Positions 1-53,105 are shown, counted from the stretch's first letter. The stretch: 64,000 nt of DNA from a phage (GCA_014686985.1 GCA_014686985.1_3627.1); one strand, 5' to 3'. Numbers and translations are program-made. Notes: generated from the sequence alone by a model not told the origin.

Positions 1-15
1 AAAAAAAAAAAATTA

Positions 16-43
16 TTGACACGCTGCAAAATTCAAGTAAACT
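16..43 (+). promoter_or_regulatory. sigma70-like early promoter
   Basis: TTGACA at 16-21, 16-nt spacer, TAAACT at 38-43; followed by 5' UTR hairpin GGCGGGAATGTTTCCCGCC (54-72). Confidence 0.5.
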
Positions 44-91
44 AGACACAAAAGGCGGGAATGTTTCCCGCCAGCACAAAGGAAAAAGATC

Positions 92-496
92 ATGAATAAG
101 AACGTACGCCGCATCATGAACGAGCTGGCAAACGATGAAAAAATTATTGACATGCATTTGATCAACATTTGCCGCCGTTGTGTAACATATAACAACCGCG
201 CCGCAAAAGCGCGTGAGATGAACGCAAAAGGTACCTTAAAGCCATTCCAGGTGGTGGTAAAGGCCATTAAAGATGTAACTAATACGGCAAACCAGGTACA
301 GGGGAACACCAACGAGAGTACCAATATTGATCCGGCTTACATCATGAAACGGATCCGGACCTGCAAGAACAAAGAGCAAGTGTATAATATCATAGACTGG
401 TTGGATTCTATGGGCGATGTGGTTTACAATAGGTTTTCTGCAGCTATCGAGATCCAGCTTGACAGGTTGGACGGTAAAGTACTGAAAACTTACTAA
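92..496 (+). CDS. hypothetical protein (134 aa)
   Basis: ORF track; ATG preceded by purine-rich leader CACAAAGGAAAAAGATC; no recognisable motif. Confidence 0.6.
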   Translation: MNKNVRRIMNELANDEKIIDMHLINICRRCVTYNNRAAKAREMNAKGTLKPFQVVVKAIKDVTNTANQVQGNTNESTNIDPAYIMKRIRTCKNKEQVYNIIDWLDSMGDVVYNRFSAAIEIQLDRLDGKVLKTY

Positions 497-497
497 G

Positions 498-543
498 TTT
501 ATTTTTAGATGGCCTTGACTTCAGGGCCATCAATAAAGTAAAC
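498..543 (+). promoter_or_regulatory. conserved 45-bp intergenic element, copy 1 (promoter with embedded dyad)
   Basis: TTTATTTTTAGATGGCCTTGACTTCAGGGCCATCAATAAAGTAAAC; near-identical copies at 1121-1166 and 4857-4903; contains TTGACT and dyad ATGGCC-N10-GGCCAT. Confidence 0.55.
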
Positions 544-578
544 TAATCTCAACTAAGCGAAAAAAAGGGGGCTTTAAG

Positions 579-698
579 ATGAGCACTACACGCCAATACA
601 CAAAGGTAACTATTATCGTTTGCGTTGTCGGTTACATCCTGGCGCAAATGTTAATGAGTAGCGCTAACAGTTTTGCAAAATTTTTCTTAAATTTTTAA
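579..698 (+). CDS. small hydrophobic peptide (39 aa)
   Basis: ATG 579, stop TAA 696-698 traced by hand; upstream AAAGGGGG RBS; hydrophobic core IIVCVVGYILAQMLM; below ORF-track size cutoff. Confidence 0.4.
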   Translation: MSTTRQYTKVTIIVCVVGYILAQMLMSSANSFAKFFLNF

Positions 699-726
699 TT
701 GACAAACTAACTTAGATCGATATACT
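699..726 (+). promoter_or_regulatory. sigma70-like early promoter
   Basis: TTGACA 699-704, 16-nt spacer, TATACT 721-726; downstream hairpin CGGGAAAACTTCCCAG. Confidence 0.55.
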
Positions 727-777
727 TAAACACGTAAACGGGAAAACTTCCCAGAGCACACAAAAGGAGAAAACACC

Positions 778-1119
778 ATGACTACTATGACCGCCGCAGA
801 AAAAGCTATGCAGATCGCCGCGCTGAAAAAACAGATCGCAGACCTTGAGAACAAGATCGATAACTTTGAAATCGACGAGGACAAGTACGACGAAAACTAT
901 GATGAATGGTTAGACGAGATCTACGGCGAAATTATGATCGGAAACATTTCTTTTCTTCCGTCGCGTATCCTCAAGGAGCTAGATCCTATCGCTTACCGCT
1001 GCGGATTTAGCGACTACATCGACAGCCTGGATATTGAGGAAGATGAAGAATACCAGGAACTACAGACAGAGTTAGAAGAAGCAAAAGAAGAGCTTGCGGA
1101 GCTGGAAGAAAACGAGTAA
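778..1119 (+). CDS. hypothetical acidic protein, coiled-coil-like (113 aa)
   Basis: ORF track; RBS AAGGAGAAAACACC before ATG; Glu/Asp-rich with heptad-like repeats. Confidence 0.6.
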   Translation: MTTMTAAEKAMQIAALKKQIADLENKIDNFEIDEDKYDENYDEWLDEIYGEIMIGNISFLPSRILKELDPIAYRCGFSDYIDSLDIEEDEEYQELQTELEEAKEELAELEENE

Positions 1120-1120
1120 G

Positions 1121-1166
1121 ATTATTTTTAGATGGCCTTGACTCCAGGGCCATCAATAAAGTAAAC
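1121..1166 (+). promoter_or_regulatory. conserved 45-bp intergenic element, copy 2
   Basis: ATTATTTTTAGATGGCCTTGACTCCAGGGCCATCAATAAAGTAAAC, starts 1 nt after the upstream stop codon. Confidence 0.55.
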
Positions 1167-1208
1167 TTTATACTGTTAACACTGAACTAATTCAGAGGAG
1201 TTAAAACC

Positions 1209-1454
1209 ATGGCAGCACTAATCACCAAATATTATGCCCCTACCAACACCAAAAGCGCCCGTGTCATGGTAAAAGGCTTCGGACGTAAAAAGGTTTACAC
1301 CTGGGATTATGCCTTAGACACGGAAGACAACTACACCAACGCGATGACCGATTTTATTAATGATCTGAACACGCGGATCTTGACAAATTATAAAATTACC
1401 GACATTGCCTATATAGGGGAAGGCGGGATCTGTTTTGTCGGTATCGTCAAATAA
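1209..1454 (+). CDS. hypothetical protein (81 aa)
   Basis: ORF track; RBS GAGGAG 7 nt upstream of ATG. Confidence 0.55.
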   Translation: MAALITKYYAPTNTKSARVMVKGFGRKKVYTWDYALDTEDNYTNAMTDFINDLNTRILTNYKITDIAYIGEGGICFVGIVK

Positions 1455-1529
1455 GCTGTTTTTTCGGTGGTCCTGGTAGCAGGGCCATCTATAAAGACAG
1501 TTTATCAACACAATGAAAGGAGAAAGTAC

Positions 1530-1883
1530 ATGATCAGCGGGGCAAGTTTTATTATTGGCGCTATTGCTACGGCTTTAATTGTAAACAAGATCCAATCTAA
1601 AAACGAAAAAGAGAGCAACGCGCTCACAGAATACCCATTTTGGGTATTCAACGACAATGAAGACTACATTATCAAGTACAAGAATGAGAAGGGCGACCAG
1701 GTAACACCGCGACCGATCCCAGCTTACAAGATGCAAGAAACACTATACCGCCTAAAGGCTGGAGGCGCAAAAATCGTAGACTTTTGGGGATATGATTGCA
1801 AGGATCAGGAGGTTATAAAGCGCCGTATCCGGGCTATTCAGGCCAATATTGAAGTTAGCGAGGGGGGAATATATGAAGATTAA
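1530..1883 (+). CDS. hypothetical membrane-anchored protein (117 aa)
   Basis: ATG 1530 preceded by AAAGGAGAAAG; N-terminal hydrophobic helix ISGASFIIGAIATALIV; track start 1467 judged too far upstream. Confidence 0.55.
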   Translation: MISGASFIIGAIATALIVNKIQSKNEKESNALTEYPFWVFNDNEDYIIKYKNEKGDQVTPRPIPAYKMQETLYRLKAGGAKIVDFWGYDCKDQEVIKRRIRAIQANIEVSEGGIYED

Positions 1884-2070
1884 TTTTGAGAAGATTGTAA
1901 AGCGATCTCATGATTCCAAAGAGCTGCCGGAACGACGCCAGCGTAACAATAAACTGAATAAGCCGAAAAGATTTGGGAAGATCTGGCGAAATCACTATGA
2001 TCGCAAATTACCCAGCCTGCTTTTGGAACGTGAACGACAAGCGGAACGATACCGCCACAAAGACAAATAG
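1873..2070 (+). CDS. small basic protein (65 aa)
   Basis: ATG 1873 after GAGGGGGG RBS, overlaps upstream stop; Arg/Lys-rich. Confidence 0.45.
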   Translation: MKINFEKIVKRSHDSKELPERRQRNNKLNKPKRFGKIWRNHYDRKLPSLLLERERQAERYRHKDK

Positions 2071-2077
2071 CAACCAA

Positions 2078-2106
2078 CGCCCCGCCATTGTGCGGGGTTT
2101 TTATTT
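2078..2106 (+). terminator. rho-independent terminator
   Basis: GC hairpin CCCCGCCATTGTGCGGGG followed by TTTTTATTT. Confidence 0.6.
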
Positions 2107-2250
2107 CTATCCTACGAATAGCGCCCATGGTTGGCCCCACAAACGCCATAAAAGCCCCTACCTATGCAATCCCCTTTCTTAACCTGAAAACAGCGTCTAG
2201 GGCCGTTTTATGGCGTTAAAAATGTTATTGACAGTAATTTTATTTAAAGC

Positions 2251-2279
2251 TTGACACCTTGGAATAGTCCGGATATACT
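2251..2279 (+). promoter_or_regulatory. sigma70-like promoter
   Basis: TTGACA 2251-2256, 17-nt spacer, TATACT 2274-2279. Confidence 0.6.
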
Positions 2280-2307
2280 GACCACATCAAAGCAAGGAGG
2301 AAACGCC

Positions 2308-2568
2308 ATGCGTAAATTGAAAAATTTTGATAAGGTAGATGTAGTACTGAATAATTTTTACTACTGCAATAATAAAGCCGTTTGGTGGCGTGATAGTTCC
2401 ACCGATAAAGTTAAGGCGCGCTTTCTCCAAGGGCACTGGCAAGGCCGTCCAGTGATTAAAATCATGGGGCAATTGGTAGCGTTTAAAAATTGCCGCCGTG
2501 TTGATGACGTTGAAGAGATTTTAAGCATTTTGCGCCACAATAATTTAAAAAATAGTGTTGACAAGTAA
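2308..2568 (+). CDS. hypothetical protein (86 aa)
   Basis: ATG 2308 preceded by CAAGGAGGAAACGCC; track start 2251 lies inside the promoter. Confidence 0.6.
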   Translation: MRKLKNFDKVDVVLNNFYYCNNKAVWWRDSSTDKVKARFLQGHWQGRPVIKIMGQLVAFKNCRRVDDVEEILSILRHNNLKNSVDK

Positions 2569-2585
2569 ATCTCGATAAGTATACT
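2558..2585 (+). promoter_or_regulatory. sigma70-like promoter
   Basis: TTGACA 2558-2563 overlapping the upstream stop, 16-nt spacer, TATACT 2580-2585; followed by hairpin GGCGGGAAAACTTCCCGCC 2596-2614. Confidence 0.6.
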
Positions 2586-2642
2586 TAAACACACAGGCGG
2601 GAAAACTTCCCGCCACTAACAAAGAAAATAGGAGAAAATATC

Positions 2643-3266
2643 ATGACCACCGTTAACATTACCACAGGTTACAATTTATCTTTCGACGTGCTGACCGATG
2701 AACAAAAAGAAAAAGCTATTGAAATGGTCCGCGAAAGAGAAGAACACAGCGGGGATAACTTTTTTGCAGAAAGTGTAATTGAAGACTATAAAGAACATAT
2801 CTTTCCAGAGTATGGCCTTGAAGATACCAAGGTACATTGGTCCGGCTTTTGGTGCCAGGGCGACGGCGCGTCAATCAGTGCGGAAAACGTGGATTTAGAA
2901 AAATTCTTGCGTAAAGTCAAGTCTCTGACTAAATTCCGCTCAATTCGTCACTTGTTCGGCACAATGCACGATGGCGAGCTATCCGCAAGTGTTGAGCGTG
3001 ATCCATATAGCCGCTATAGTCACGAAAACACTGTAAGCGGGTACATCGATACTACATGGCTAGACCTGACAGCCAAGCAAGAAAGTAAGGTTGAAGAGCT
3101 GGAAGAGCTGATCACCGAGACGGTACGGGAGCTATCCCGCAAGGTTTATGTAGACCTGGAGGAGGCCTATCTTGAACAGTTTACTACCGAAAACCTGATC
3201 GGCCTTATTGAAGCCAATGATTGGCGGTTTAATGTGGATGAATATGGGGAGATGAGTTTTTCATAA
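2643..3266 (+). CDS. hypothetical protein (207 aa)
   Basis: ORF track; RBS AGGAGAAAATATC before ATG; acidic. Confidence 0.65.
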   Translation: MTTVNITTGYNLSFDVLTDEQKEKAIEMVREREEHSGDNFFAESVIEDYKEHIFPEYGLEDTKVHWSGFWCQGDGASISAENVDLEKFLRKVKSLTKFRSIRHLFGTMHDGELSASVERDPYSRYSHENTVSGYIDTTWLDLTAKQESKVEELEELITETVRELSRKVYVDLEEAYLEQFTTENLIGLIEANDWRFNVDEYGEMSFS

Positions 3267-3355
3267 ATAAAGTGTTGCAATAATCTAAAAACCTGCTATA
3301 TTAAAACTCAAGGGGCGAGATGACTTGCCCCACACAAAACAAAGAGGAAAACATC

Positions 3356-3736
3356 ATGAAAAACACCACCAAGGCTATTGACACCGTTATGTTTAACCTG
3401 GTTACATTCCGTGAAGATATGAAAGATCTTCCACGTGAAACTGTGTGCGACCATATCGAAAACTATCGCAAACTAATCAAAGAGTTGCCTTTAAAACGTG
3501 ACCAATATGCGGCTAACGCTATGCTTAACGCCATGATCAAAAAGATGATTCAGTGTGATTTAACTCTGGCCTATGATTATGCAGGTGGTCGTTTTGCAGT
3601 ATACAATCAGCCCGTGCCTGGTATGAGCACCACCGAAGAATTGCACGCGCTCAATCTAAAACAAGATGTGTGGGATAGTATGCCCCGCGTGGTGGTATGG
3701 GTAGAAAGCGGAAAGATTTACGGCGATAATTTTTAA
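3356..3736 (+). CDS. hypothetical protein (126 aa)
   Basis: ATG 3356 after AAAGAGGAAAACATC; upstream 5' UTR hairpin GGGGCGAGATGACTTGCCCC. Confidence 0.6.
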   Translation: MKNTTKAIDTVMFNLVTFREDMKDLPRETVCDHIENYRKLIKELPLKRDQYAANAMLNAMIKKMIQCDLTLAYDYAGGRFAVYNQPVPGMSTTEELHALNLKQDVWDSMPRVVVWVESGKIYGDNF

Positions 3737-3746
3737 TCAGGTAACA

Positions 3747-3776
3747 GGCGGCGGCATATTTGCCGCCTTATTGTTA
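3747..3776 (+). terminator. rho-independent terminator
   Basis: hairpin GGCGGCGGCATATTTGCCGCC followed by TTATTGTT. Confidence 0.55.
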
Positions 3777-3803
3777 ATCAGAACTGTAAAAGAGGTACAT
3801 AGA

Positions 3804-4175
3804 ATGGAATTTATTATTTTGGCTATATTAGTTGCCTTGTTTAACGCCTGGATCGCTGGCAAGATGGGCAGATCCGCCTTTTTATGGTTTATTATATCTA
3901 TTTTCCTGGGAGTGGTTGCAACTATTGTATTGGTTATCCTTGCAATTGTTGACAAGGGGAATAATAGAAAGGGTAAAGTATTTTCAGACCTGTACGACGC
4001 TCAAACATTTGTCAACGCCTACTACAGCGATCTTCCAGTCTCCCTACGTTGCAGCCTTGCACAACAGGTTTTCGATGAAGCTAAAACCAGAGATCACGCC
4101 CATGAGATTTGTTTAACTGAGGCGGATCGCCTATTTGAGAGGAATAGAAAATATGTGGACCAGCCGTTTAAATAA
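3804..4175 (+). CDS. hypothetical membrane protein (123 aa)
   Basis: ATG 3804 after AAAGAGG; two hydrophobic helices in the N-terminal half. Confidence 0.55.
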   Translation: MEFIILAILVALFNAWIAGKMGRSAFLWFIISIFLGVVATIVLVILAIVDKGNNRKGKVFSDLYDAQTFVNAYYSDLPVSLRCSLAQQVFDEAKTRDHAHEICLTEADRLFERNRKYVDQPFK

Positions 4176-4285
4176 TGCCACGTTAATTAATCCCTTTAGT
4201 GAAGATTTGAAGCCAGCCGCCTGGCGCGATGGATTCAATAACGAAAGCTTTATTTTCAGGCCTGATCTTAAGGAATTTTATAACA

Positions 4286-4411
4286 ATGGATCGAACAACG
4301 ACAGAGATAATTTTTCTTGTAATGTGCGTGGTGATAATACTCCTGGGGGCCATTGCAAACCACGTCACTGCTAACAGGAGGGGAGGGGGAGACGATGACA
4401 ACCAAGGATAA
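4286..4411 (+). CDS. small transmembrane peptide (41 aa)
   Basis: ATG 4286; single hydrophobic helix IIFLVMCVVIILLGAIA; an alternative overlapping frame (4153-4374) exists, so the call is uncertain. Confidence 0.35.
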   Translation: MDRTTTEIIFLVMCVVIILLGAIANHVTANRRGGGDDDNQG

Positions 4412-4514
4412 GCCCCGCACCGATAAGGTGCGCCGTGTTATGGTATGGCTTGAGATCATCGCCCTTGAAATATTGTTAGGCGTAGGGATGTACTTTATCG
4501 CTGTAAGTAACTGA
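4395..4514 (+). CDS. small transmembrane peptide (39 aa)
   Basis: ATG 4395 after GGAGGGGGAG RBS, stop TGA 4512-4514 traced by hand; hydrophobic VWLEIIALEILLGVGMYFIAV. Confidence 0.4.
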   Translation: MTTKDKPRTDKVRRVMVWLEIIALEILLGVGMYFIAVSN

Positions 4515-4519
4515 TAACG

Positions 4520-4550
4520 GCCCCCAATCCCTGGGGGCTTAACTTTTTCA
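4520..4550 (+). terminator. rho-independent terminator
   Basis: hairpin GCCCCCAATCCCTGGGGGC followed by TTAACTTTTT. Confidence 0.55.
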
Positions 4551-4570
4551 AAAATTTTTCTTCCCGGGTG

Positions 4571-4600
4571 TTGCAATCCGGTCCGGAATATGGATAATAA
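4571..4600 (+). promoter_or_regulatory. sigma70-like promoter (TTGCAA / ATAATA class)
   Basis: TTGCAA 4571-4576, 17-nt spacer ending AATATGG, ATAATA 4594-4599; same architecture at 5730-5758. Confidence 0.5.
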
Positions 4601-4654
4601 CAATCAACGGGGAAACATCCCCACCAACACAAAAACCAGAAAGGAGAAACAAAA

Positions 4655-4855
4655 ATGAGCAACAATATCCGCGTTATTAACTTCAAAAAAGAAGAAAAAA
4701 TTGCCGTGCTGATTGACGGTCAAGAAATCTTCAAGGGCGACTATGAAGATCATCAAACGGCGATTAGTATCACTCGCGTGATTGGTTACCATAATTTTTA
4801 CCCCCAAGGCGCTGAGGCGGCGGTTAAACGAATCAAAGAGATTGTAGGCCTGTAA
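4655..4855 (+). CDS. hypothetical protein (66 aa)
   Basis: ORF track; RBS AAAGGAGAAAC before ATG. Confidence 0.6.
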   Translation: MSNNIRVINFKKEEKIAVLIDGQEIFKGDYEDHQTAISITRVIGYHNFYPQGAEAAVKRIKEIVGL

Positions 4856-4856
4856 A

Positions 4857-4903
4857 ATTTATTTTTAGATGGCCTTGACTCTAGGGCCATCAATAAAGTA
4901 AAT
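4857..4903 (+). promoter_or_regulatory. conserved 45-bp intergenic element, copy 3
   Basis: AATTTATTTTTAGATGGCCTTGACTCTAGGGCCATCAATAAAGTAAAT. Confidence 0.55.
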
Positions 4904-4946
4904 TTAAACCCTGTTAAAATAATCAGTGCAAAAAGGAGTAATGATC

Positions 4947-5246
4947 ATGTTTATCCAGGCTAATAATCTTTATTTCTTTGATGGTCAGATCGTAGACGGC
5001 GTGGAGGTGGAAATCACCGGGTGCCCTGGCGGTCAGGTTATGACTTTTCGGAATAATGCCTTTGATGATTCTCATATCGTTATGAGAATGGAAGTTAGTA
5101 AGCTGGATGACAAGAAAACACTTATCGACTATTCTGTGAAAGATCATCCAGACTACCACATGATCTATGGTGATTTGTGCGTTGTTGACCGTGACAAGGT
5201 GGGCGGCATTGTGATCGCTATTGTGAACGATGTTTTCTCAAACTAA
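4947..5246 (+). CDS. hypothetical protein (99 aa)
   Basis: ATG 4947, 8 nt after AAAGGAG; alternative ATG 4941 / GTG 4926 less well spaced. Confidence 0.55.
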   Translation: MFIQANNLYFFDGQIVDGVEVEITGCPGGQVMTFRNNAFDDSHIVMRMEVSKLDDKKTLIDYSVKDHPDYHMIYGDLCVVDRDKVGGIVIAIVNDVFSN

Positions 5247-5263
5247 TTTCAGCAGGTGATTTT

Positions 5264-5614
5264 ATGAAAGTAAAACTATATTACCTTAATGAGCTTAACC
5301 CCCTTGCCCAGGTCCGCGCCATAGCTAATACCTTGATTTGTGAGAAATCTGTATATTGTGTTGAGCTTAACGCCATGCGTGAACGTCTCAAAGGTGGTTA
5401 CTTTGACATCCATACTGCAATCAACGGCCTGAATATGGAATTTATACGCTTACGTAACAGCCGCTGGAATCTGGCAAGAATGGAACAAGATCCGGCCTAC
5501 CTTCGTAAGCTGGTTATTGAAAATCATCTGATGTTTAATGCCGAGGGTGATTATTACCATTTTCACCGCAGACGCTGGTACCGTGGCGGCAATACAGGCA
5601 AGAATGCAAAATAA
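5264..5614 (+). CDS. hypothetical protein (116 aa)
   Basis: ORF track; followed by GC hairpins 5615-5690. Confidence 0.55.
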   Translation: MKVKLYYLNELNPLAQVRAIANTLICEKSVYCVELNAMRERLKGGYFDIHTAINGLNMEFIRLRNSRWNLARMEQDPAYLRKLVIENHLMFNAEGDYYHFHRRRWYRGGNTGKNAK

Positions 5615-5729
5615 GGCCCCTAGCAGGGCCTGCAGCAATATAATCACATAAAGGCTATGCGGTTGCATGGCCTTTATTATTTTGGCGTTACAACGGCATA
5701 CGGGGCGCTTAAAAATTTTTAAAAAGTAC

Positions 5730-5758
5730 TTGCATCATTCCCAACAATATGGATAATA
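5730..5758 (+). promoter_or_regulatory. sigma70-like promoter (TTGCAT / ATAATA class)
   Basis: TTGCAT 5730-5735, 17-nt spacer ending AATATGG, ATAATA 5753-5758; downstream hairpin GGGGGGCGGCCCCCC. Confidence 0.5.
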
Positions 5759-5814
5759 GGACGCATCAGGGGGGCGGCCCCCAATCATTAACCGGATAGA
5801 TAGGAGTTAAAACC

Positions 5815-6099
5815 ATGGCTATTGTTACCGTTGGCGATGTAGTGGAAATGGAAGCAAAATACTTAAAAGCGGGTATGCATATCCTTCGGAACGATCAAGA
5901 AATGTTGCTGACTATGGTTGACTATAATCCTGGGCAGGATTATCCTAGCGTTGACTACTTTTTCCAGTATGTTGATGAAGAATTAAAAGAGGATGAGGCT
6001 TATTGCGGTGAGTTCTGCAACTTCTTTTGCCCGGATGAAGTTGTAAAAGTTATCTATCAACCTGGCGTACCTTTCCCGCTACACGCTATCAATAAATAA
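5815..6099 (+). CDS. hypothetical protein (94 aa)
   Basis: ORF track; RBS TAGGAG before ATG. Confidence 0.6.
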   Translation: MAIVTVGDVVEMEAKYLKAGMHILRNDQEMLLTMVDYNPGQDYPSVDYFFQYVDEELKEDEAYCGEFCNFFCPDEVVKVIYQPGVPFPLHAINK

Positions 6100-6155
6100 A
6101 CCTGGCGGGGCCGAAAAGGCCCCCCAATTATGAAAATAAAGAGAGGCAAATCATC

Positions 6156-6386
6156 ATGATGGAACAAATTAAACGCGCCGAGGCTATTAATGGCAACGTG
6201 ATCTATTTTGTCAGCAATAACGAAAAAGGCGTACCATATGCGGCGGTAATAGTACAGCCTGACGGCGATTATTGGTTTACTGTGTACGGCGCTTACTCTT
6301 TTGGGCGTCCAGTGCATGATAAAATTTTGAAAGTAGCGAACCCTACCGGGAAGAATATCACAGCAGAAAAATTTTTTGAAAAATAG
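6156..6386 (+). CDS. hypothetical protein (76 aa)
   Basis: ORF track; RBS AGAGAGG; upstream hairpin GGCGGGGCCGAAAAGGCCCCCC. Confidence 0.55.
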   Translation: MMEQIKRAEAINGNVIYFVSNNEKGVPYAAVIVQPDGDYWFTVYGAYSFGRPVHDKILKVANPTGKNITAEKFFEK

Positions 6387-6414
6387 TTGACATGGCCTTA
6401 TAAGACTGTAGAAT
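6387..6414 (+). promoter_or_regulatory. sigma70-like promoter
   Basis: TTGACA 6387-6392, 16-nt spacer, TAGAAT 6409-6414. Confidence 0.45.
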
Positions 6415-6466
6415 ATAAATCAAAGGGGGCAACAAGCCCCACCAACCACAAAGAGGATAAAAAATC

Positions 6467-6646
6467 ATGGCTATTATTGCAAAGACTGAGATCGTAGGCT
6501 TAGATTCTATTCTCCTCGCATATGAGGAAGCTATAGAAATGTATGTGGTTTCCTATGGTGAATATATCCGTGAATATAAATCTATTGATCTGGCTTTTGA
6601 ATGTTATATTCGCCAGGTTAATAAAGCGTACGATGATTATCGTTAA
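6467..6646 (+). CDS. hypothetical protein (59 aa)
   Basis: ATG 6467 after AAAGAGGATAAAAAATC, stop TAA 6644-6646 traced by hand; below ORF-track cutoff. Confidence 0.5.
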   Translation: MAIIAKTEIVGLDSILLAYEEAIEMYVVSYGEYIREYKSIDLAFECYIRQVNKAYDDYR

Positions 6647-6736
6647 AATAGCTTGACAACAAACAACCATCTAACAAAGCATAATACATAAGGCGGTGGA
6701 ATGGTCCGCCACCTGGAACAAGAAGAGGAAAACAAG

Positions 6737-6838
6737 ATGAAACAGAAATTAATTGATGCGGTGATCCTGGTTATTGCCCTGGGTATTGGCCTGATTGCAA
6801 CCATGTCTAATATGATCTTGTCTTCCAACGGTATCGGG
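6737..6838 (+). CDS. small transmembrane peptide (33 aa)
   Basis: ATG 6737 after AAGAAGAGGAAAAC; hydrophobic AVILVIALGIGLIATM; stop overlaps the RBS of the next gene. Confidence 0.45.
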
Positions 6839-6850
6839 TGAGGTTGGCAA

Positions 6851-7066
6851 ATGATCACTAACAAAACAGGCAAAACAGAATTTTTACGCAACTTACAGAT
6901 CGGCAAGCCTGAGATCTGGTATTGCACTAAAACACCACGTGACGAAATGAAAGACTTCACCGCCACGCTGCAACGGGTAAAGATATCCATCACGCAGAAA
7001 AAGGCCTTATTAGTGGTGGAAGGTGAGATCCCCCAAACCGTTGTTATAGTTGAGCGTACAGCATAG
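6851..7066 (+). CDS. hypothetical protein (71 aa)
   Basis: ORF track; RBS GGTGAGG. Confidence 0.55.
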   Translation: MITNKTGKTEFLRNLQIGKPEIWYCTKTPRDEMKDFTATLQRVKISITQKKALLVVEGEIPQTVVIVERTA

Positions 7067-7157
7067 TTTAATTTATACCGATACCCGAAAATTAACCAAC
7101 AAAGCATAAACAGGCGGTTACCGCCGCCTTAAACGTAGCAGAAAGAGGATAGACACA

Positions 7158-7442
7158 ATGAAAAAGATGATCGCAGTGGTTGCCCTGGTTGTTGGACTTA
7201 ATGCGCCTGTAATGGCTAAAGAGCTGGCAAAAGAGGTTAATCTAACGGATATTCATGCCGTCAATCAAATCGGGGTTACTTATCGCTTATGCCTTGCCGC
7301 TAAAACTTTCCAGGACGGCACGACAGAGTACTACGGATTCGAGGGTATCCGGTGCGGTGAGCTTGCTCGCGACCTTAAGGAAGATCCAGATCTGGAAGAT
7401 CTACCCATCACCGTAAACGGTAAAGCTTACGTAAACCGTTAA
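7158..7442 (+). CDS. hypothetical secreted/periplasmic protein (94 aa)
   Basis: N-terminal signal-peptide-like MKKMIAVVALVVGLNAPVMA; RBS AAAGAGGATAG. Confidence 0.6.
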   Translation: MKKMIAVVALVVGLNAPVMAKELAKEVNLTDIHAVNQIGVTYRLCLAAKTFQDGTTEYYGFEGIRCGELARDLKEDPDLEDLPITVNGKAYVNR

Positions 7443-7444
7443 CC

Positions 7445-7579
7445 ATGAGAAAGATAACCATCACCTTGGGGATTGTGGTAGCAATACTGGCGCTCTTTCC
7501 CCTTATGGTTAGGTATGTGCTGATCAGTGTTGTCCTGATAGTCAGTGATCTATTGGAAACGGTTGGCACCTTGTTTTAA
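7445..7579 (+). CDS. small membrane protein (44 aa)
   Basis: ATG 7445, 2 nt after upstream stop; two hydrophobic stretches; stop TAA 7577-7579. Confidence 0.4.
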   Translation: MRKITITLGIVVAILALFPLMVRYVLISVVLIVSDLLETVGTLF

Positions 7580-7592
7580 AGAGCGATAAAAA

Positions 7593-7784
7593 ATGAATAT
7601 CGAACAAGTTAGAAAGGTATTAGCGGTACTGCGTTATCATAATCATAGAAAGGTCATAGACGATCCTGATTATGTTGATTCAAGCCTGGAAGAGGATACA
7701 CTACAAGCCATAAGTAACATGCAAGAATTGCTAAAGCGCATGACAGAGAAAAACCGACCGGACTACATAGGCGAAAAAATATAA
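7593..7784 (+). CDS. hypothetical protein (63 aa)
   Basis: ORF track. Confidence 0.5.
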   Translation: MNIEQVRKVLAVLRYHNHRKVIDDPDYVDSSLEEDTLQAISNMQELLKRMTEKNRPDYIGEKI

Positions 7785-7801
7785 TATTTATAAACTACAA
7801 A

Positions 7802-7830
7802 ACAGGGCTTGCAATGGTCCTGTTTTTTGT
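7802..7830 (+). terminator. rho-independent terminator
   Basis: stem ACAGG/CCTGT with loop, followed by TTTTTTGTT. Confidence 0.55.
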
Positions 7831-7913
7831 TATACTTATTCCACGGCAGGCACCTGGCGACGGGGGGGAGACAATCACCGGGCCTGCCTGTCATATAAGA
7901 ACTATAAAAACCG

Positions 7914-7942
7914 TTGACATCTGCCATGGGGTGAGGTAACAT
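7914..7942 (+). promoter_or_regulatory. sigma70-like promoter
   Basis: TTGACA 7914-7919, 17-nt spacer, TAACAT 7937-7942; downstream hairpin GGGGCAAAAGTGCCC. Confidence 0.5.
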
Positions 7943-7996
7943 TTATCTTGAAGGGGCAAAAGTGCCCACACAACAACCAGGAGAGAGGAAAACACT

Positions 7997-8269
7997 ATGT
8001 CAAGCTGGATTAATCAAGAAGTCGAATCACGTTTTAATGCTATATGGGATCTCATCGAAAAAGAGGACGGAACATCAAGCCCCTACCTCAACAATTTGGA
8101 ATTCCATTTTGTGGAAGCGATGAACGCAGAACATGATCACGAAGGTGGCGCGGATGAGTTCGCTAAAGGTTATGGCTTTAACAATGCCAACGAAATGATC
8201 GAGGCGGTCGTACTCCAGGCTGAGGAAGATTATCAATTAAAAACGCTTGAATTCTGCCGCCATAAGTAA
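7997..8269 (+). CDS. hypothetical protein (90 aa)
   Basis: ORF track; RBS AGGAGAGAGGAAAAC. Confidence 0.6.
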   Translation: MSSWINQEVESRFNAIWDLIEKEDGTSSPYLNNLEFHFVEAMNAEHDHEGGADEFAKGYGFNNANEMIEAVVLQAEEDYQLKTLEFCRHK

Positions 8270-8329
8270 TAAGATAATGACACGGGCCAAAAGGCCCACT
8301 AATCAGAACCGCACAAAGAGGTAAACATC

Positions 8330-8593
8330 ATGAAACGTCTTGACCAGCTCAAACTAGTTCAGTACATGGCTTACAGAATTCTTGAAGTCCAAAAAGGTAG
8401 CAAAAAAGAAGTTTGCGAGAAAGCGTACAAGATCTTTACTCGCAAAAAAGACGATTGGATGCTACGCCAGACTAAAAAGGCTGACATCTTGGGGTACCTG
8501 GAAGAAGAGATCCGGCTTGAAGAACAAGAAGAGATCCGCCGTAGTGAGGCAGATTATCAGGCAGTTTGGGAAAACTGGATGAGCAACAAATAA
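8330..8593 (+). CDS. hypothetical protein (87 aa)
   Basis: ORF track; RBS AAAGAGG; upstream hairpin GGGCCAAAAGGCCC. Confidence 0.6.
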   Translation: MKRLDQLKLVQYMAYRILEVQKGSKKEVCEKAYKIFTRKKDDWMLRQTKKADILGYLEEEIRLEEQEEIRRSEADYQAVWENWMSNK

Positions 8594-8659
8594 TACAACA
8601 AGTTACATGGTCAGGGGCAATAAAGCCCCTTGATCACATAAAAATTATGCTATCCCTTG

Positions 8660-8688
8660 TTGACAGGGATCGGCAGTTTTGCTATATT
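8660..8688 (+). promoter_or_regulatory. sigma70-like promoter
   Basis: TTGACA 8660-8665, 17-nt spacer, TATATT 8683-8688. Confidence 0.55.
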
Positions 8689-8737
8689 CTTTTTTGAAGG
8701 GAAGTTGTAAGAAAATTAACTAAGAGGTAAAAACACC

Positions 8738-9157
8738 ATGAACATTAAATCTGATAATCCGGCATATAGCTTTGATAACGCTTTTTGTCACGGTCCGGCG
8801 GCGAAAGGATTCGAAATCGATGGTAAACTAGTTATTGTTAATGTTGACGGGGAAGAGGTTGCAGTATATCCGGTGGCAGACGTTAAAAGCCGTCTACAAT
8901 GCCGCATGGATGTTACCGCCTATCAGCTTGATCCGGTCCGGGTAGTTGCCCTGGTCCTGGAAGAAGAAATTAAAGCAATGCACCACAGCAACAAGTTTAT
9001 TGGTGACGCTCAAGATAATATGCAGGTATGCCGCTATAAAGTTAATGAAGTGCTTAAAGAGTACGGCTATAAGGATTTAATGATCAAGCGTGATGAAAAA
9101 TTCCGCTACCGTAACGACCTGGCAAATCGGATTTTTGAAATATACGAATCATTATAA
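8738..9157 (+). CDS. hypothetical protein (139 aa)
   Basis: ORF track; RBS TAAGAGG. Confidence 0.6.
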   Translation: MNIKSDNPAYSFDNAFCHGPAAKGFEIDGKLVIVNVDGEEVAVYPVADVKSRLQCRMDVTAYQLDPVRVVALVLEEEIKAMHHSNKFIGDAQDNMQVCRYKVNEVLKEYGYKDLMIKRDEKFRYRNDLANRIFEIYESL

Positions 9158-9177
9158 TTTCTTAACTGAATTATCAA

Positions 9178-9202
9178 GGGGCTTAAAGGCCCCTTTCTTT
9201 TT
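9178..9202 (+). terminator. rho-independent terminator at the end of the plus-strand early block
   Basis: hairpin GGGGCTTAAAGGCCCC followed by TTTCTTTTT. Confidence 0.6.
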
Positions 9203-11760
9203 GTCTGCTCTTCTCCTACCATAAACGGCCCTACCCGGCAAGTGGAATAATTGACTAGCCATTAATCCCACACACTGTACAAATATACATATAAAATAAC
9301 TATTGCATAATCTTTCACTGTGTGGTAGCAGGGCCATTTTTACCCGTTTTCTCTCCCAAAAGTGCACGTAATGCCGCTATTGCACAAATTTTAACCTGAT
9401 GCACATCTCCAATATCTTGTCAACAACTAAAAATCTTTATAAGTCATACACTTACACAACATAGAAAGCGTGTCCTACGCGAAAAATCGAGTATAACTAT
9501 GGCCGCCAGATCTCAGAATTCACGTACGCACGCCATTCTATAGCCTGCAAAGTATTTATTCCAACCACAGAATAACGGAATAGTCAATACCTGCATAAAA
9601 TAATTATTCGTGTAAACTGCATAACATAAATCAGCTCAGGTGTCAACATTTTTCGTAAACAGTCCGAAATTATCACGATGAGTTATCATAAACAGAGAAA
9701 TCTTTAGTCGTCTAATGTTTACTGTACATTACTATACTGACTGGAATCATTAGATGACTAAGAGAAAGATAAGAAATAATTAATAATGTGATTATTTTAC
9801 CTGTAACAATAAGGCAACTATGCAAACGAATGGCATGGCGCGACGGAGTCGCGACATAATATAAAAGCAGTAACCATCACCCCCGTGATAGTTTGTCTGC
9901 AAACTATTAATCAGATCATAGTTGCCTTGTATTTAGTTAATCATGACATAACAAGCAAGGCAACTATAGATCTTCTAATAGTTGCCCTGCTTTTATATTA
10001 TGTCATAGAAACACCCGAAGGGGTGACCAAAGGCCACCTGGCATAGCCAGCGAAAGATTATTAACTTGCTAATAGTTATCATGCAAACGAATGGCATGGC
10101 TTATCATTTCCATGTAAATAGTTAGCTATGTAAACTATTGGTCATGTAAACCATTAAGCATGTAAACAGTAAGAGCGTGAACAGTAAAGGGAGTGAATAG
10201 TAATAGCGTGAATAGTGACAGCGTAAACAGTCAGGCATGTCAATTATGTCATATTGTGTCACCATTATGTCTAAAGTGTCATATTGTGTCAGACAAGTTT
10301 TTCTCCTCTTTGTCAAGTGCTGCATGAAAAATTTACAAGCTGGTATGGTAGCATTTTTGCGGCCCTGTTTACATTCAGTGATGTATGTATAATCCTTGTT
10401 GTGTGGGCGTTTAGACGTCTAGACGGTTGGAAGTCCACAGGTCAATATCTAATCTATCGGCTGCTAACTATATCCCACACAAATAGTAAGAAATATGATT
10501 GTTATATGCGTAAACAGTAACTCATGTTATCAATCCCTGTATGTATCGCCAGTGGTGCGCATAATGGGTATTATGTTAAATTGCCCGTAATGATAATGGT
10601 TCTCACAATGATAGGTATTCTCATTCCCCCACACAAAATAGATTGCAAATGTTGTGCCACTATGTGAACGGCCTCACCTATTAATTTGCCTCACTGCCTC
10701 GATATTTGAGAATTGTTATAAGAATGAGAATGATTCCCATTTCGTCCGCCTGGCAGCACTCCTGTAGGTCCTGCAAGGACTCTAGCTGAAAGCTAGACCC
10801 TTCGGGCCTCCCTGTAGGTCAGGTCAAAATCGTGGTAGAATTGGGCCTGTTCAGATATTTCTGGCTGACTCTTCAGGTCTGTGTGGGAAAAGCCAACCTC
10901 TCCGGCGGCGGGGAGGGGGTCAATTAAAAAAAAAATTACGTGGTGTATGAAGCGCTCTTCAGGTAAGGCATATATTATGAGATGAAACCCTCTTCAGGTA
11001 ATGATATTTGTGGGTGTGATATTTGCTGGAAAGCCAGATATGACGGGACTCCCGGCGGGGCAGGGGTAGTACAGACAGGGAAAATATGAGAATGTAGTTG
11101 GGGAAATTGATCAGACAGGTAGAGTATGGAATATGTTACAAGTATGTTAAATATGGAGGTTGAATATCTGTAGGGTTTGTGTGTAAAATCAAAGACTTAA
11201 GGGGTGTTGTGGTATTTTCTATAAATAATTCAAGTTTAATAGGCAATATTTGTCTCTATCCGCTTTGTGTGGTAAACAGATTCAGATTAGATTGGTTTAC
11301 AAGTGTATACATAATATACAAATTAAAGATACAAGAAACCCCCCTCCCCCTTCGGCTACCATTCACCTTTTCCTCTGACTGGTACTTAAACACTTATTCA
11401 GACTCTTCAGGTTATCACCCATATATCATATGGCAGTGACTGGTGTCCTCCGGCCCCTCTTTCGTCACCCGTCCGCTTCGCCATGCTAATGCCATAGCCA
11501 ATGGTTCGGTTGTTCACCCTGTTCACTCAGGTGTATCTCCATACCCCTTCAAACCGAAGAGAACAGAAAACCCGAATTACTCGGTAAAAGAAAAGAGAAG
11601 AACTTAATTTTATCAGGATAGGCAAGAATGTCAAGGCATGACTGCTCACTAAACAAGCAAACAGTCATGTGTGGGAGGTAAGTGATTGTGGTGGTAGGAA
11701 ATTTAGTTGAAAGATGTGTTATAGGTGCTTCCAGCACTTTAGCCTGGCAGCTAATTGTGT
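9203..11760. repeat. non-coding repeat-dense region (several families of short direct and inverted repeats)
   Basis: no convincing ORF on either strand; recurring motifs AGGCAACTAT / ATAGTTGCC, CAAACGAATGGCATGGC (x2), TGTCATATTGTGTCA (x2), CATGTAAA and GTGAATAGT series, CTCTTCAGGT (x4), CCTGTAGGTC (x2). Confidence 0.6.
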
Positions 11761-11761
11761 G

Positions 11762-12043
11762 TCAGTCCAGCGGTTCATCCTCTACTTCACTGAAATCAAT
11801 GTTCATGGTCTCTTCCCAACCATCGATCTCAGCACAAGAGTAGAGATCTTTAGGACTTACTCCCAAAGCCTCAGCAACAGAGTCTATATTTAACACCTCT
11901 GGCAGGTATGATTCATCGAATTCAAGGTAAATCAGGCCACGAGTGTTGTCAGCTCCACCAAATATTTCTATCTTCATGAAATCTCCTCTGGAAATGAGAA
12001 TGTGAACAGGGTTTATATGTTCCAATGCACTGGAATTATGCAC
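11762..12043 (-). CDS. hypothetical acidic protein (93 aa)
   Basis: ORF track; last gene of the minus-strand block. Confidence 0.5.
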   Translation of the reverse strand: MHNSSALEHINPVHILISRGDFMKIEIFGGADNTRGLIYLEFDESYLPEVLNIDSVAEALGVSPKDLYSCAEIDGWEETMNIDFSEVEDEPLD

Positions 12044-12097
12044 GTTTGCCTCTTCAGGCCATGCTTTAGCATGAGGAACCTGTGTGGGCTCGGTGCT

Positions 12098-12511
12098 TCA
12101 TAGTCTACCACCTCTGAACTCTTCGTGCTCAGGCATAATAGAGAACCAGATATCTACGATGTCTTCCCACGTTAGGTCATCAGCCTCAGGATCTACCTGG
12201 AGCGAAGATGGAGAATCTTCAGAATCGAAGTTTTCCTCTTGCACTGGCTCAGTCAAGGGACATATAGTCACTCCTTTGGATGTCTCTTCAGATGCATGTG
12301 TGTTTATCATGTTCCACCCGTGAGTATTCCGGCAACAGCCACTATGGACGTAATGATCATCAGGATCACCACCAAAACCTCTGACAATGTTTTCATTGTG
12401 TATCCCATATTCTCCAAACGATGTGTGGATACTATCACTGGAGCGGCAATGTGTCAACAGAAACGCCGCGAGGGTTTGGTTAAAATCCGAGCGTATGGTG
12501 ATTTGGGTCAA
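12098..12511 (-). CDS. hypothetical protein (137 aa)
   Basis: ORF track; acidic C-terminus; preferred over overlapping plus-strand ORFs because of block orientation. Confidence 0.45.
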   Translation of the reverse strand: MTQITIRSDFNQTLAAFLLTHCRSSDSIHTSFGEYGIHNENIVRGFGGDPDDHYVHSGCCRNTHGWNMINTHASEETSKGVTICPLTEPVQEENFDSEDSPSSLQVDPEADDLTWEDIVDIWFSIMPEHEEFRGGRL

Positions 12512-20455: not shown

Positions 20456-20517
20456 TCTCTCTACCTCTTTCTTAGTTTATTTCACTATGGCACATCCTTT
20501 GTGCCATATCTCAACTA

Positions 20518-27448: not shown

Positions 27449-27511
27449 ACTGCACCTCCTAGCTCACTGTGTGTCAATAATATGCCACATCCTTGTGGCT
27501 TTTGTCAAGAA

Positions 27512-49649: not shown

Positions 49650-50000
49650 ATGAAAGATGGGGATAAGCTGCTATATCTTAAAGTCCCCCTTGAAATACTG
49701 TCTATGTCAAAAGTTTTGAATGACACAACTGGGGAGGTTGTTGTTCTTGACTTATATGACAAGATCGTATACTGCTACCTGCACAACTGGTATAAGCTTG
49801 GAGGAAATTCACGCTTCACACCCAGCACAAGGAAAATTGCAGCAGATGTTGGGATAAAGAAAACAAAAGCAGCAGCGTGCGTTAAAACTTTAGAATGTGC
49901 AGGAGTGGTTGAAATATCCACACAAGGGAGAGGTAAAAGATGTACATTTTCCAAAGTTTTGCCACCAGAAGAGGTTATTCGAATGTCAACAACTGGTTAG
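49650..50000 (+). CDS. hypothetical DNA-binding protein (winged-helix-like), candidate iteron-binding initiator/regulator
   Basis: helix-turn-helix-like TPSTRKIAADVGIKKTKAAACVKTLECAGVV; immediately upstream of four tandem dyad repeats. Confidence 0.5.
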   Translation: MKDGDKLLYLKVPLEILSMSKVLNDTTGEVVVLDLYDKIVYCYLHNWYKLGGNSRFTPSTRKIAADVGIKKTKAAACVKTLECAGVVEISTQGRGKRCTFSKVLPPEEVIRMSTTG

Positions 50001-50072
50001 ACCAGTAAAAACTTAAATATCTGTACTATAAGGATTCGTATGTTTTATGTTCGCTCTGGAACAGAGGTCAGT

Positions 50073-50158
50073 AACTGTCCGTGATACGGACACTACTGTC
50101 CGTCACGCGGACACATCTGCCCGTAATACGGACACTAACTGTCCGTGATACGGACACA
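50073..50158. repeat. four tandem 21-22-bp iterons, each containing dyad GTCCGT-N3-ACGGAC
   Basis: AACTGTCCGTGATACGGACACT (50073), ACTGTCCGTCACGCGGACACAT (50095), ATCTGCCCGTAATACGGACACT (50117), AACTGTCCGTGATACGGACACA (50137). Confidence 0.8.
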
Positions 50159-50280
50159 TAAAGAATATAACTAAAATAACTAAATAATAAAAATAAAAGA
50201 TCTAGTACTTATGGTACTAAGTACATATACTTAACTTATGTAGAATATACTAGATCCTAAGTACCATGTTTTAAAATTAT
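50159..50280. other. AT-rich region with nested palindromes (candidate DNA unwinding element)
   Basis: very AT-rich tract; inverted repeats GATCTAGTA...TACTAGATC and GTACTTATGGTAC. Confidence 0.5.
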
Positions 50281-50640
50281 TACTTACTATAGGTAGTGTC
50301 GGCCCTTCATTGGCACTCGCCTACGAGGGGCGAGATGCCGGGCCTCCTTGGTGCACACAATAACAGAAGTGCATACATGCAGGTCTGTTAACATGTGTGG
50401 GAGCGAAGCGATAGCGCAGGCCAAAGGCCGAGCACTGATGTGGACCACCGACGAAAGCTTGCCAGCGCCGTAAGGAGTCGGTTGAGAGTCTCCCGCGCGA
50501 GCTTGGATGAAGTTTATGTGTGGAAACTGACAAGAAGGCCCCTAAATCGCTCCACAGCTATATAAACTATACCAGGTAATGCAATCGCACCAGTTTGATA
50601 GAAAAGCTCGTTACAAAGTGATACAGTGAGTTTTTCTATA
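50281..50640 (+). ncRNA. GC-rich structured non-coding island A (candidate ncRNA/structured leader)
   Basis: locally GC-rich versus AT-rich surroundings, many short complementary segments, no plus-strand ORF of 60 aa or more; strand assignment by context only. Confidence 0.3.
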
Positions 50641-52537: not shown

Positions 52538-52612
52538 GCCCTGTTAGCTTAGTGGATAAAGCAGCGGCCTTCTAAGCCGTTGACACTGGTTCGAGTCCAG
52601 TACGGGGTGCCA
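52538..52612 (+). tRNA. tRNA-Arg(UCU): tRNA-Arg (anticodon UCU)
   Basis: hand-folded cloverleaf: acceptor GCCCTGT/ACGGGGT, D-arm GCTT...AAGC, anticodon loop CTTCTAA, T-arm ACTGG-TTCGAGT-CCAGT, CCA encoded. Confidence 0.8.
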
Positions 52613-52616
52613 AATT

Positions 52617-52703
52617 GGGGAGTTATCCCGTAGAGGTAGCGGTGTAGACTGTAAATCTATTGTCATTGCGACTCGGGTGGTTCGACTCCACCACTCCCCA
52701 CCA
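52617..52703 (+). tRNA. tRNA-Tyr(GUA): tRNA-Tyr (anticodon GUA), class II
   Basis: acceptor GGGGAGT/ACTCCCC, anticodon loop CTGTAAA, long variable arm, T-arm GGTGG-TTCGACT-CCACC, CCA encoded. Confidence 0.75.
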
Positions 52704-52817
52704 AATTTATATTTTTAGATGCATAAATAATACAGATAATGGCATTGATATTTATCGTCGTTTATACTAGTCACTAACTGCTCGAAAATCAGTGTCATTA
52801 TCAGTATAATTTATAAA

Positions 52818-52908
52818 GGAGGGTAGGGAGCAATGGTGCTCAAGCGGTCTTGAAAACCGTCCCGTTGAGGATGACTCGATGATGGTTCGATTCCATTACT
52901 CTCCGCCA
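52818..52908 (+). tRNA. tRNA-Ser(UGA): tRNA-Ser (anticodon UGA), class II
   Basis: acceptor GGAGGGT/ACTCTCC, anticodon stem GCGGT/ACCGT with loop CTTGAAA, long variable arm, T-loop TTCGATT, CCA encoded. Confidence 0.7.
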
Positions 52909-53006
52909 CATTGTTGACCTTGTAATTAAGCGAAAGCCGGAAGCAGAACCGGATTATCAAATGTTACAGTCGTCATCGCCGACTAGCAACATGGTCAACA
53001 TACTGA

Positions 53007-53105
53007 GCTAGGTAAGCCCTTTGGCAAGGGCGAGGATTTTTAATCCTGAAAATAGACGAGGTAGTCGTTGAATACATAGGTGGTTCGATTCCATCGCCTA
53101 GCACC
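53007..53105 (+). tRNA. atypical tRNA-like element (99 nt; anticodon arm irregular, about 30-nt variable region)
   Basis: intact acceptor GCTAGGT/GCCTAGC, D-arm GCCC...GGGC and T-arm GGTGG-TTCGATT-CCATC; AGGA-TTTTTAA-TCCT arm would give anticodon UUU (Lys) but with a mismatch and an over-long variable region. Confidence 0.45.

Follow-up and report, generated by a model that had tools for sequence, protein, structure and literature searches.

The DNA analysed here, 64,000 nucleotides (nt) of a phage genome (GCA_014686985.1) read on one strand and referred to below as the window, opens with a cluster of about 26 small genes on the + strand (1-9200), all of them annotated as hypothetical, and ahead of 12 of these early genes (about half) lies a GC hairpin joined to an A-rich, T-poor leader. 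Stems of the module hairpins measure 5-10 base pairs (bp) and loops 3-6 nt, with the 3' end of the hairpin 19-32 nt before the ATG (Table 1). The window derives from an rV5-like coliphage (Vequintavirus), and bases 1-9000 match such phages in 232 records, at 97.7% identity to phiWec191 and at 93-95% to rV5 derivatives and many others. Top matches (99.5%) are records titled 'Campylobacter phage', evidently mislabelled; MG065655, MG065659 and others ('Campylobacter phage C2/C5/C15/A12a...') share 99% identity with this type of coliphage and are probably mislabelled or contaminated. None of the ten early proteins scanned against Pfam scored above the curated cut-off.

Hairpin units ahead of early genes

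All ten hairpins that a first-pass annotation of this DNA had listed are present, 0-4 nt from the positions it gave, and two members it had overlooked (4609-4622, 5769-5782) bring the set to twelve. One of the ten, given as 739-754, exists solely as a 5-bp GGGAA/TTCCC version and not in the full GGCGGGAA form ascribed to it. Nor are the hairpins set 10-25 nt upstream of the leader, as had been claimed, since the leader directly abuts the hairpin. When the windows from -55 to -13 upstream of the 26 genes were compared with 1000 dinucleotide shuffles, a perfect GC hairpin of at least 5 bp was found in 11 of 26 as opposed to 0.62 +/- 0.74 (maximum 4) in the shuffles, and hairpin density came to ~12 per kb in these upstream windows versus 0.7 per kb in early coding sequence.

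As for the leader, a common CACAAAG-purine motif had been proposed, and what stands of this is a shared composition: leaders are made up of 55% A, 18% C, 18% G (mostly Shine-Dalgarno) and 9% T, with T at 25% upstream of other genes, while the heptamer ACAAAGR is not enriched across the whole window (34 found, 26 expected; 5 of the 34 fall in the 328 nt of module leaders). Independently, a repeat finder recovers AAAGAGGAAAACATCATGA (7 copies) and the hairpin 3' arm together with the leader (3 copies); it also aligns 699-752 (module 2) with 2558-2611 (module 3) over 54 nt at 76% identity and identifies the -10 region of module 6 as a repeat of that of module 5. The flank aacaaagcataa is common to modules 9 and 10. 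Several leaders (73-91, 753-777, 3332-3355, 4623-4654, 7968-7996) contain many single-stranded ACA triplets, at which the MazF toxin cuts, and could on this sequence feature render early messages unusually sensitive to that host toxin.

Table 1. The twelve hairpin units of the early region (all on the + strand). Hairpins are given as exact cores (5' arm-loop-3' arm); dG, free energy of the hairpin; numbers between hexamers are spacer lengths in nt.
Module	Extent	Promoter	Hairpin	dG	Leader	ATG	Remarks
1	16..94	TTGACA-16-TAAACT, 16-43	GGCGGGAA-tgt-TTCCCGCC, 54-72	-14.6	agcacaaaggaaaaagatc, 73-91	92	promoter = rV5 P194
2	699..780	TTGACA-16-TATACT, 699-726	GGGAA-aac-TTCCC, 740-752	-5.5	753-777	778	promoter = rV5 P192
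3	2558..2645	TTGACA-16-TATACT, 2558-2585	GGCGGGAA-aac-TTCCCGCC, 2596-2614	-14.6	2615-2642	2643	promoter = rV5 P185; z = -6.5 (shuffle test)
4	3275..3358	TTGCAA-16-TATATT with TG, 3275-3302	GGGGCGAG-atga-CTTGCCCC, 3312-3331, one G-U pair		3332-3355	3356	
5	4571..4657	TTGCAA-16-GATAAT, 4571-4598	GGGGA-aaca-TCCCC, 4609-4622		4623-4654	4655	canonical terminator upstream, 4520-4538 = rV5 t181
6	5729..5817	weak, TTGCAT-16-GATAAT, 5729-5756 (8/12 matches)	GGGGG-gcgg-CCCCC, 5769-5782		5783-5814	5815	terminator upstream, 5648-5677
7	6107..6158	none	GGGGCC-gaaaa-GGCCCC, 6107-6123	about -18	6124-6155	6156	hairpin 7 nt past stop of preceding gene
8	6387..6469	TTGACA-16-TAGAAT, 6387-6414	GGGGC-aacaa-GCCCC, 6426-6440		accaaccacaaagaggataaaaaatc, 6441-6466	6467	promoter = rV5 P174
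9	6653..6739	none canonical; TTGACA 6653-6658, then CATAAT 6680-6685, 21 nt apart	AGGCGGTGGA-atgg-TCCGCCACCT, 6691-6714		6715-6736	6737	
10	7112..7160	none canonical	AGGCGG-ttaccg-CCGCCT, 7112-7129		7130-7157	7158	
11	7914..7999	TTGACA-17-TAACAT, 7914-7942	GGGCA-aaag-TGCCC, 7954-7967		7968-7996	7997	promoter = rV5 P168; terminator-like hairpin upstream, 7799-7826
12	8284..8332	none convincing	GGGCC-aaaa-GGCCC, 8284-8297		actaatcagaaccgcacaaagaggtaaacatc, 8298-8329	8330	

An ATG falls within the hairpin loop at 3320 and again at 6701. Starts of the 6701 type are annotated in phiWec191 (locus L001, 12317-12457), Gotham (L002, 7344-7484) and rV5_ev147 (L004, 7694-7834), and it is 6737, not 6701, that has Shine-Dalgarno support; at 3320, relatives correctly use the equivalent of 3356.

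Promoter register and predicted transcript 5' ends

Seven of the 12 hairpins stand just past a good sigma-70 promoter (hexamers matching at 9-11 of 12 positions, spacer of 16-17 nt) and an eighth behind a weaker one (8/12 matches), promoters which the first-pass annotation had missed. A-tracts or AAAATAG lie upstream of unit promoters, five of which coincide with predicted rV5 promoters (Table 1); the rV5 paper lists the promoters and true terminators of the region separately and leaves the hairpins unmentioned. For the seven modules with good promoters the gap from the -10 box to the hairpin is 9-13 nt, mostly 10-11. We extended this to 61 distinct promoter-plus-hairpin matches from the window and the loci of 11 relatives, a few of which (weak promoter, larger gap) are terminator-like and not true modules. 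Here the first paired base follows the -10 box at a distance of 10-12 nt in 43 matches and of 9-13 nt in 50, and between hairpin and ATG there are 17-36 nt, never fewer than 17. It is therefore the promoter, not the start codon, to which the hairpin is anchored, and the hairpin never intrudes on the ribosome-binding site.

A CA dinucleotide is usual at positions 7-8 past the -10 box, and if a purine 7-8 nt after the -10 box is taken as the start, promoter geometry predicts an unpaired 5' end of 2-7 nt (mode 4) ahead of the stem. At modules 5, 6 and 11 (4571, 5729, 7914) the order is terminator, then promoter, then hairpin, so these hairpins cannot serve the upstream transcript and would be the first structure of a fresh one. 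Four units (6107, 6691, 7112, 8284) are without a canonical promoter and would be intercistronic. Ribosome-binding sites of module genes are open, with a mean unpaired probability of 0.66 for -14 to +3 versus 0.45 in the rest of the window (p = 6e-6).

Genuine + strand terminators lie at 2079-2098, 3746-3768, 4519-4539, 5648-5677 and 9176-9195, separate from the modules, and none of the 12 module hairpins was called as a + strand terminator. We rejected intrinsic + strand termination as their function because there is no U-tract behind any of them and the downstream sequence is A/C-rich.

Selection on stem pairing

Divergence, expressed for each site as the mean fraction of nine Vequintavirus relatives that differ from the window, amounts to 0.054 for stems and 0.163 for loops; promoter spacers stand at 0.102 and third codon positions at 0.090, with the -35 boxes invariant. 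Hairpins survive loop replacement, paired stem extension, register shifts, insertions and deletions and one G-C to C-G swap, and outright loss is seen in a single relative, Gotham, through a 4-nt deletion at 6426 (module 8). Module 4 orthologs keep the stem despite 5-9 edits (the G-C to C-G swap among them), the module 7 hairpin is kept in 9/9 relatives, and module 10 in two relatives has its stem rebuilt (caggcggcggtgaccgcctt) with similar stability. When compared with mutants carrying an equal number of random changes, 40 of 43 variant hairpins were the more stable, with means of -11.2 versus -6.0 kcal/mol (Wilcoxon p = 2e-10, the variants not being phylogenetically independent); variants with 5-9 edits equalled or exceeded the original in stability, which 0 of 300 random mutants did. 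Among modules, too, stem sequence varies (GGCGGGAA, GGGGC, GGGCC, GGGGA, GGGCA) with pairing retained. Stem stability is under selection, and it is pairing that counts, not sequence.

Occurrence in other phages

Two phages from another subfamily, phi92 and phAPEC8, carry the same design in more uniform form ahead of most early genes: TTGACA-N16/17-TAnAnT, ~11 nt (ttatcacatag), the hairpin (GGCGGGAAA-tgg-TTTCCCGCC or GGGCGGCA-atgg-TGCCGCyC), an A-rich leader and the ATG. A search with a phi92 module returned 458 places, spread over 142 records of phages of Escherichia, Enterobacter, Pectobacterium, Klebsiella, Serratia and Salmonella; such a module also matches 'Enterococcus phage heks' (MT119359), probably a mislabelled or contaminated record. 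In the phAPEC8 record (locus L010: 556-575, 937-956, 1787-1806, 3202-3221) the 20-mer GTAGGGCGGCAATGGTGCCG is labelled 'putative promoter determined with PHIRE'. This repeat has already been noticed by others, then, and read differently; to judge from its sequence the label is probably wrong, the 20-mer being a palindromic hairpin downstream of a sigma-70 promoter.

Wider searches added little. An Rfam 15 search of 1-12500 gave no family match, only two sub-threshold chance matches, and a leader-pattern search of the relatives' loci gave no match. Scanning IMG/VR for GGCGGGAAnnnTTCCCGCC yielded 115 stretches, nearly all single matches on unrelated contigs and three only on contigs of rV5/phi92 size, and a scan with the start of the gene at 4655 hit almost only unrelated contigs. 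In the literature on rV5, Vequintavirus, PVP-SE1, phi92 and phAPEC8 we found no description of the hairpins and no mapped 5' ends.

Class-B repeats and recombination junctions

A 51-nt repeat of a different make (class B) lies directly past stop codons at 494-544, 1117-1167, 1452-1502 and 4854-4904 (four copies, one degenerate), and a fragment of it recurs at 9323-9342. Within its 10-bp hairpin (GATGGCCTTG/CAGGGCCATC) lies TTGACT, a -35-like box, and TAAACT follows 18 nt further on; owing to this overlap the class-B hairpin cannot be in the downstream transcript. Another hairpin, 8613-8630, sits upstream of a promoter.

Genes that are extra or replaced in phiWec191, Mangalyan, slur16 and Pr121LW have their junctions in leaders or -35 boxes, from few events and with no statistical control. 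The extra gene of phiWec191 has the leader ACTAATCA..CACAAAGAG on both flanks, Mangalyan has gained two cassettes, both equipped with a promoter and a hairpin of their own, and the module 12 leader is duplicated on either side of an extra gene in three relatives. Breakpoints in the nine relatives include overlaps of 15 nt (8306-8320) and 33 nt (6717-6749) flanking extra genes, and others fall in the -35 boxes at 6392 and 6672.

Surrounding features of the window

Past the early cluster lies a stretch (~9200-11700) of ~2 kb without a convincing gene, for which the rV5 map has a 'non-coding' box and at whose left edge stands the bidirectional terminator 9176-9195; beyond this stretch genes run leftward to ~48.5 kb. 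Leftward promoters (27484-27499, 20486-20508, ~43218-43231) have related palindromes between -35 and -10 (GCCACA..TGTGGC, GGCACA..TGTGCC, CCAC..GTGG), and this minus-strand palindrome may be an operator for a shared regulator. Three close palindromes, TGTCCGT..ACGGACA, occur at 50076-50146, where 440 nt (50000-50440) are non-coding. At 52538-53350 seven tRNA genes are clustered (Arg, Tyr, Ser, Thr, Met, Pro), and among them ARAGORN makes a call with a four-base anticodon (53007-53105).

Discussion

Our findings identify the hairpin-leader unit as a real, selected and widespread regulatory cassette with a set anatomy, an occurrence that is not random, a fixed register to promoters, selection on its stems, an open ribosome-binding site and recombination junctions within its copies. 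What the hairpin does we infer to be stabilisation of the message. Judged on sequence, we would give about even chances to a model in which a stem-loop at the 5' end stabilises the message, an open leader serves ribosome binding, and the two are packaged with a promoter into a portable cassette. The order of parts would be a host sigma-70 promoter (in 8 of 12 units, one of them weak), a GC stem-loop about 2-5 unpaired nt past the predicted transcript start and an A/C leader. The hairpin would make the 5' end harder to reach for RppH and the RNase E 5' sensor, much as in the 5' untranslated regions (5' UTRs) of ompA and papA, and would at the same time sequester its own G-rich and C-rich arms from pairing with the ribosome-binding site. 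The leader (19-32 nt), with no self-folding and few U-containing RNase E sites, would keep that site open, so that the entire 5' UTR may be either base-paired or covered by ribosomes with little naked RNA left. Copies lacking a promoter may act between cistrons and shield a 5' end created by processing, for which papA is an example, or else the upstream message's 3' end, and repeated units could double as short homology patches for the gain, loss and swap of gene cassettes. We take this recombination role to be real but secondary, and compatible with stabilisation.

That the hairpins are shared signals in the 5' region of the messenger RNA, as the first-pass annotation had suggested, fits everything we computed. 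Promoter geometry puts them past the predicted transcription starts; transcripts that begin downstream of the hairpins and so leave them out are not what this geometry predicts. Its interpretation thus finds support in part: among the roles it had offered, a 5' stabilising stem-loop fits best, endonucleolytic processing of the RNase III type is unlikely with stems of just 5-10 bp, and 'translation enhancer' suits the leader, not the hairpin.

According to Emory, Bouvet and Belasco in 1992, a stem-loop within 2-4 nt of the 5' end reportedly suffices for protection. RppH and the RNase E 5' sensor require 5' ends that are single-stranded, and the stabilising effect of 5' structures is generally attributed to this (PMC3997798); both need at least 2 unpaired nt and prefer at least 3 (PMC8833179). 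Several points weigh against stabilisation of the downstream transcript. The overhang of 3-4 nt predicted here is near the length these enzymes can use, and protection may be only partial. Transcription starts are predicted, from promoter geometry alone, and 4 of 12 hairpins have no canonical promoter. The fixed promoter-hairpin spacing could in part stem from common descent of the copies, and mismatches in stems (9 G-T versus 5 A-C) do not reveal the strand on which the structure matters. Finally, each of the 19 gaps of 35 nt or more between the genes of 1-9200 contains some hairpin, class-B repeats included, and with a hairpin in every gap and class-B hairpins outside the downstream transcript, a role at the end of the upstream message fits equally well.

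This last point leads to a possible, to our minds somewhat doubtful, scenario akin to the promoter-early stem-loops (PeSLs) of T4-like phages, in which the stem-loop acts on upstream transcripts (as attenuator, terminator or 3' protector) and the unit is mainly a recombination substrate. Presence of a hairpin in those 19 gaps whatever the promoter position (the four class-B repeats and 8613-8630 among them) is in line with it, as are the homology breakpoints that fall within units when relatives are compared, and PeSL stem-loops are known to cut downstream lacZ expression like a strong terminator (PMC2839356). Yet with no U-tract after the module (class-A) hairpins termination is unlikely, and it would also kill the unit's own transcript; behind the canonical terminators that precede modules 5, 6 and 11 such a stem-loop would be redundant, and the tight spacing of 10-12 nt to the -10 box would not be required. 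Since a phage survives only if its genes are intact, breakpoints would in any case be expected to fall at gene boundaries.

An unlikely option is that the hairpins tag the whole regulon for a dedicated factor, of phage or host origin, that switches off or marks early genes at the early-to-middle transition; candidate readers are an endoribonuclease, a translational repressor or an enzyme that modifies 5' ends. Tag reading would explain why hairpin types and the CAYRTAG flank are conserved across two subfamilies and why the 5' arm is near-constantly purine-rich. In its more general form, where the hairpins are binding sites of one factor, be it a DNA operator at +4 to +22 (for a repressor in early shut-off) or an RNA tag, we hold the idea to be improbable, if less clearly so for the types conserved in sequence. 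Some types are indeed conserved in sequence between the two subfamilies (GGCGGGAA(A)-nnn-(T)TTCCCGCC, GGGCGGCA-atgg-TGCCGC), the 5' flank CAYRTAG is conserved, the 5' arm is purine-rich in 42 of 48 hairpins and the hairpin position overlaps that of a classic operator such as lacO. However, half-sites differ widely between modules with loop or half-site spacings of 3-6 nt, loops evolve ~3x faster than stems, ortholog stems are rebuilt with other sequences and four copies have no promoter to repress, while conservation within types is explicable by copying between modules.

We consider it very unlikely that the hairpins are minus-strand intrinsic terminators directed against antisense transcription from the leftward block. 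About six are called terminator-like on the minus strand because the stretch from -10 box to hairpin is A-rich (e.g. GGCGGGAAACATTCCCGCC TTTTGTGTCT), but promoter and start region account for this A-richness, T-runs are short and interrupted (phi92-type tail, CTATGTGATAA), the strong bidirectional terminator 9176-9195 already closes the region, and neither the leader nor the constant distance to the ATG is explained.

That the hairpins are phage-specific promoters or boxB-like antitermination sites is barely credible: the flank CACATAGGG loosely recalls the T7-type CACTATAGGG, the loop GAAAA (6113-6117) is that of lambda nutR boxB and the phAPEC8 record has its promoter label, yet we know of no RNA polymerase encoded by this phage group itself, the element always sits behind a full sigma-70 promoter or between cistrons, its copies number at least 12 in 9 kb and not just one or two, conservation is lowest in the loops, no boxA-like partner was noticed on reading the leaders (no formal search was made), no Rfam family matched and the rV5 paper treats transcription in terms of the host holoenzyme only.

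Should the stabilising cassette be borne out, rV5-, phi92- and phAPEC8-like phages, widely used as candidates for therapy and biocontrol, would express early genes of unknown function from a standard, exchangeable part. It would allow early transcription units and true start codons to be annotated by a simple rule (ATGs annotated in several relatives lie in a hairpin loop), put right a label that a database already carries ('PHIRE promoter', phAPEC8 record), supply a natural set of compact, insulated E. coli expression parts, and carry the PeSL idea of regulatory cassettes as recombination handles beyond the T4-like phages.

Comparison with known systems

The leader of T7 gene 10 (phi10), in use in pET vectors, combines a G-rich 5' stem-loop, an unstructured leader and a strong ribosome-binding site. 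It differs from the units in that it relies on T7 RNA polymerase and a class III promoter and has only one type of copy, and nothing points to homology between the two.

By analogy of function, the units resemble 5' stabilisers of the ompA/papA type. Both have a short, stable hairpin, for the units at a predicted distance of a few nt from the 5' end, followed by the ribosome-binding region (for the ompA and papA 5' UTRs, work of Emory, Bouvet, Arnold, Bricker and Belasco, as cited in PMC3997798), in both the stem sequence is unimportant and pairing is kept, and the logic of 'two protective elements' in ompA matches the combination of hairpin and ribosome-binding leader seen here. In papA the hairpin is made 5'-terminal by processing of a polycistronic RNA, a precedent to be compared with the promoter-less units. 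The predicted overhang of 3-4 nt lies at the upper limit for protection of this type. Whereas ompA and papA are single host-gene cases proven by half-life measurements, the design described here is repeated regulon-wide (12 in 9 kb), recurs in hundreds of phage genomes and is known from sequence.

The closest known kind is the PeSL, reported from the T4-like phages RB49/phi1, PST and nt-1 (Arbiol et al. 2010, PMC2839356; Comeau et al. 2014, PMC4122927). PeSLs and the units share an AT-rich tract, a near-consensus sigma-70 promoter, a G(n)-loop-C(n) stem-loop, a Shine-Dalgarno sequence and the start of a small orphan gene; both are concentrated in variable early regions, with junctions of gene gain, loss or replacement inside units, and our class-B repeat with its hairpin over the -35 box matches a PeSL subclass. 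They differ in lineage, T4-like there as opposed to Vequintavirinae and Stephanstirmvirinae here, and the A/C-rich leader is distinctive of the units. PeSL traits include a stem-loop that serves as terminator or attenuator and excised mini-circles, and here the lack of a U-tract argues against a terminator. In PeSLs the stem-loop lies inside the promoter and a position after -10 box and start site marks the rarest subclass (PMC2839356), whereas the dominant stem-loop of the units is found 10-12 nt past the -10 box and without a U-tract inside the transcript; with the stem-loop in the transcript rather than in the promoter, its role therefore probably differs from that of a PeSL.

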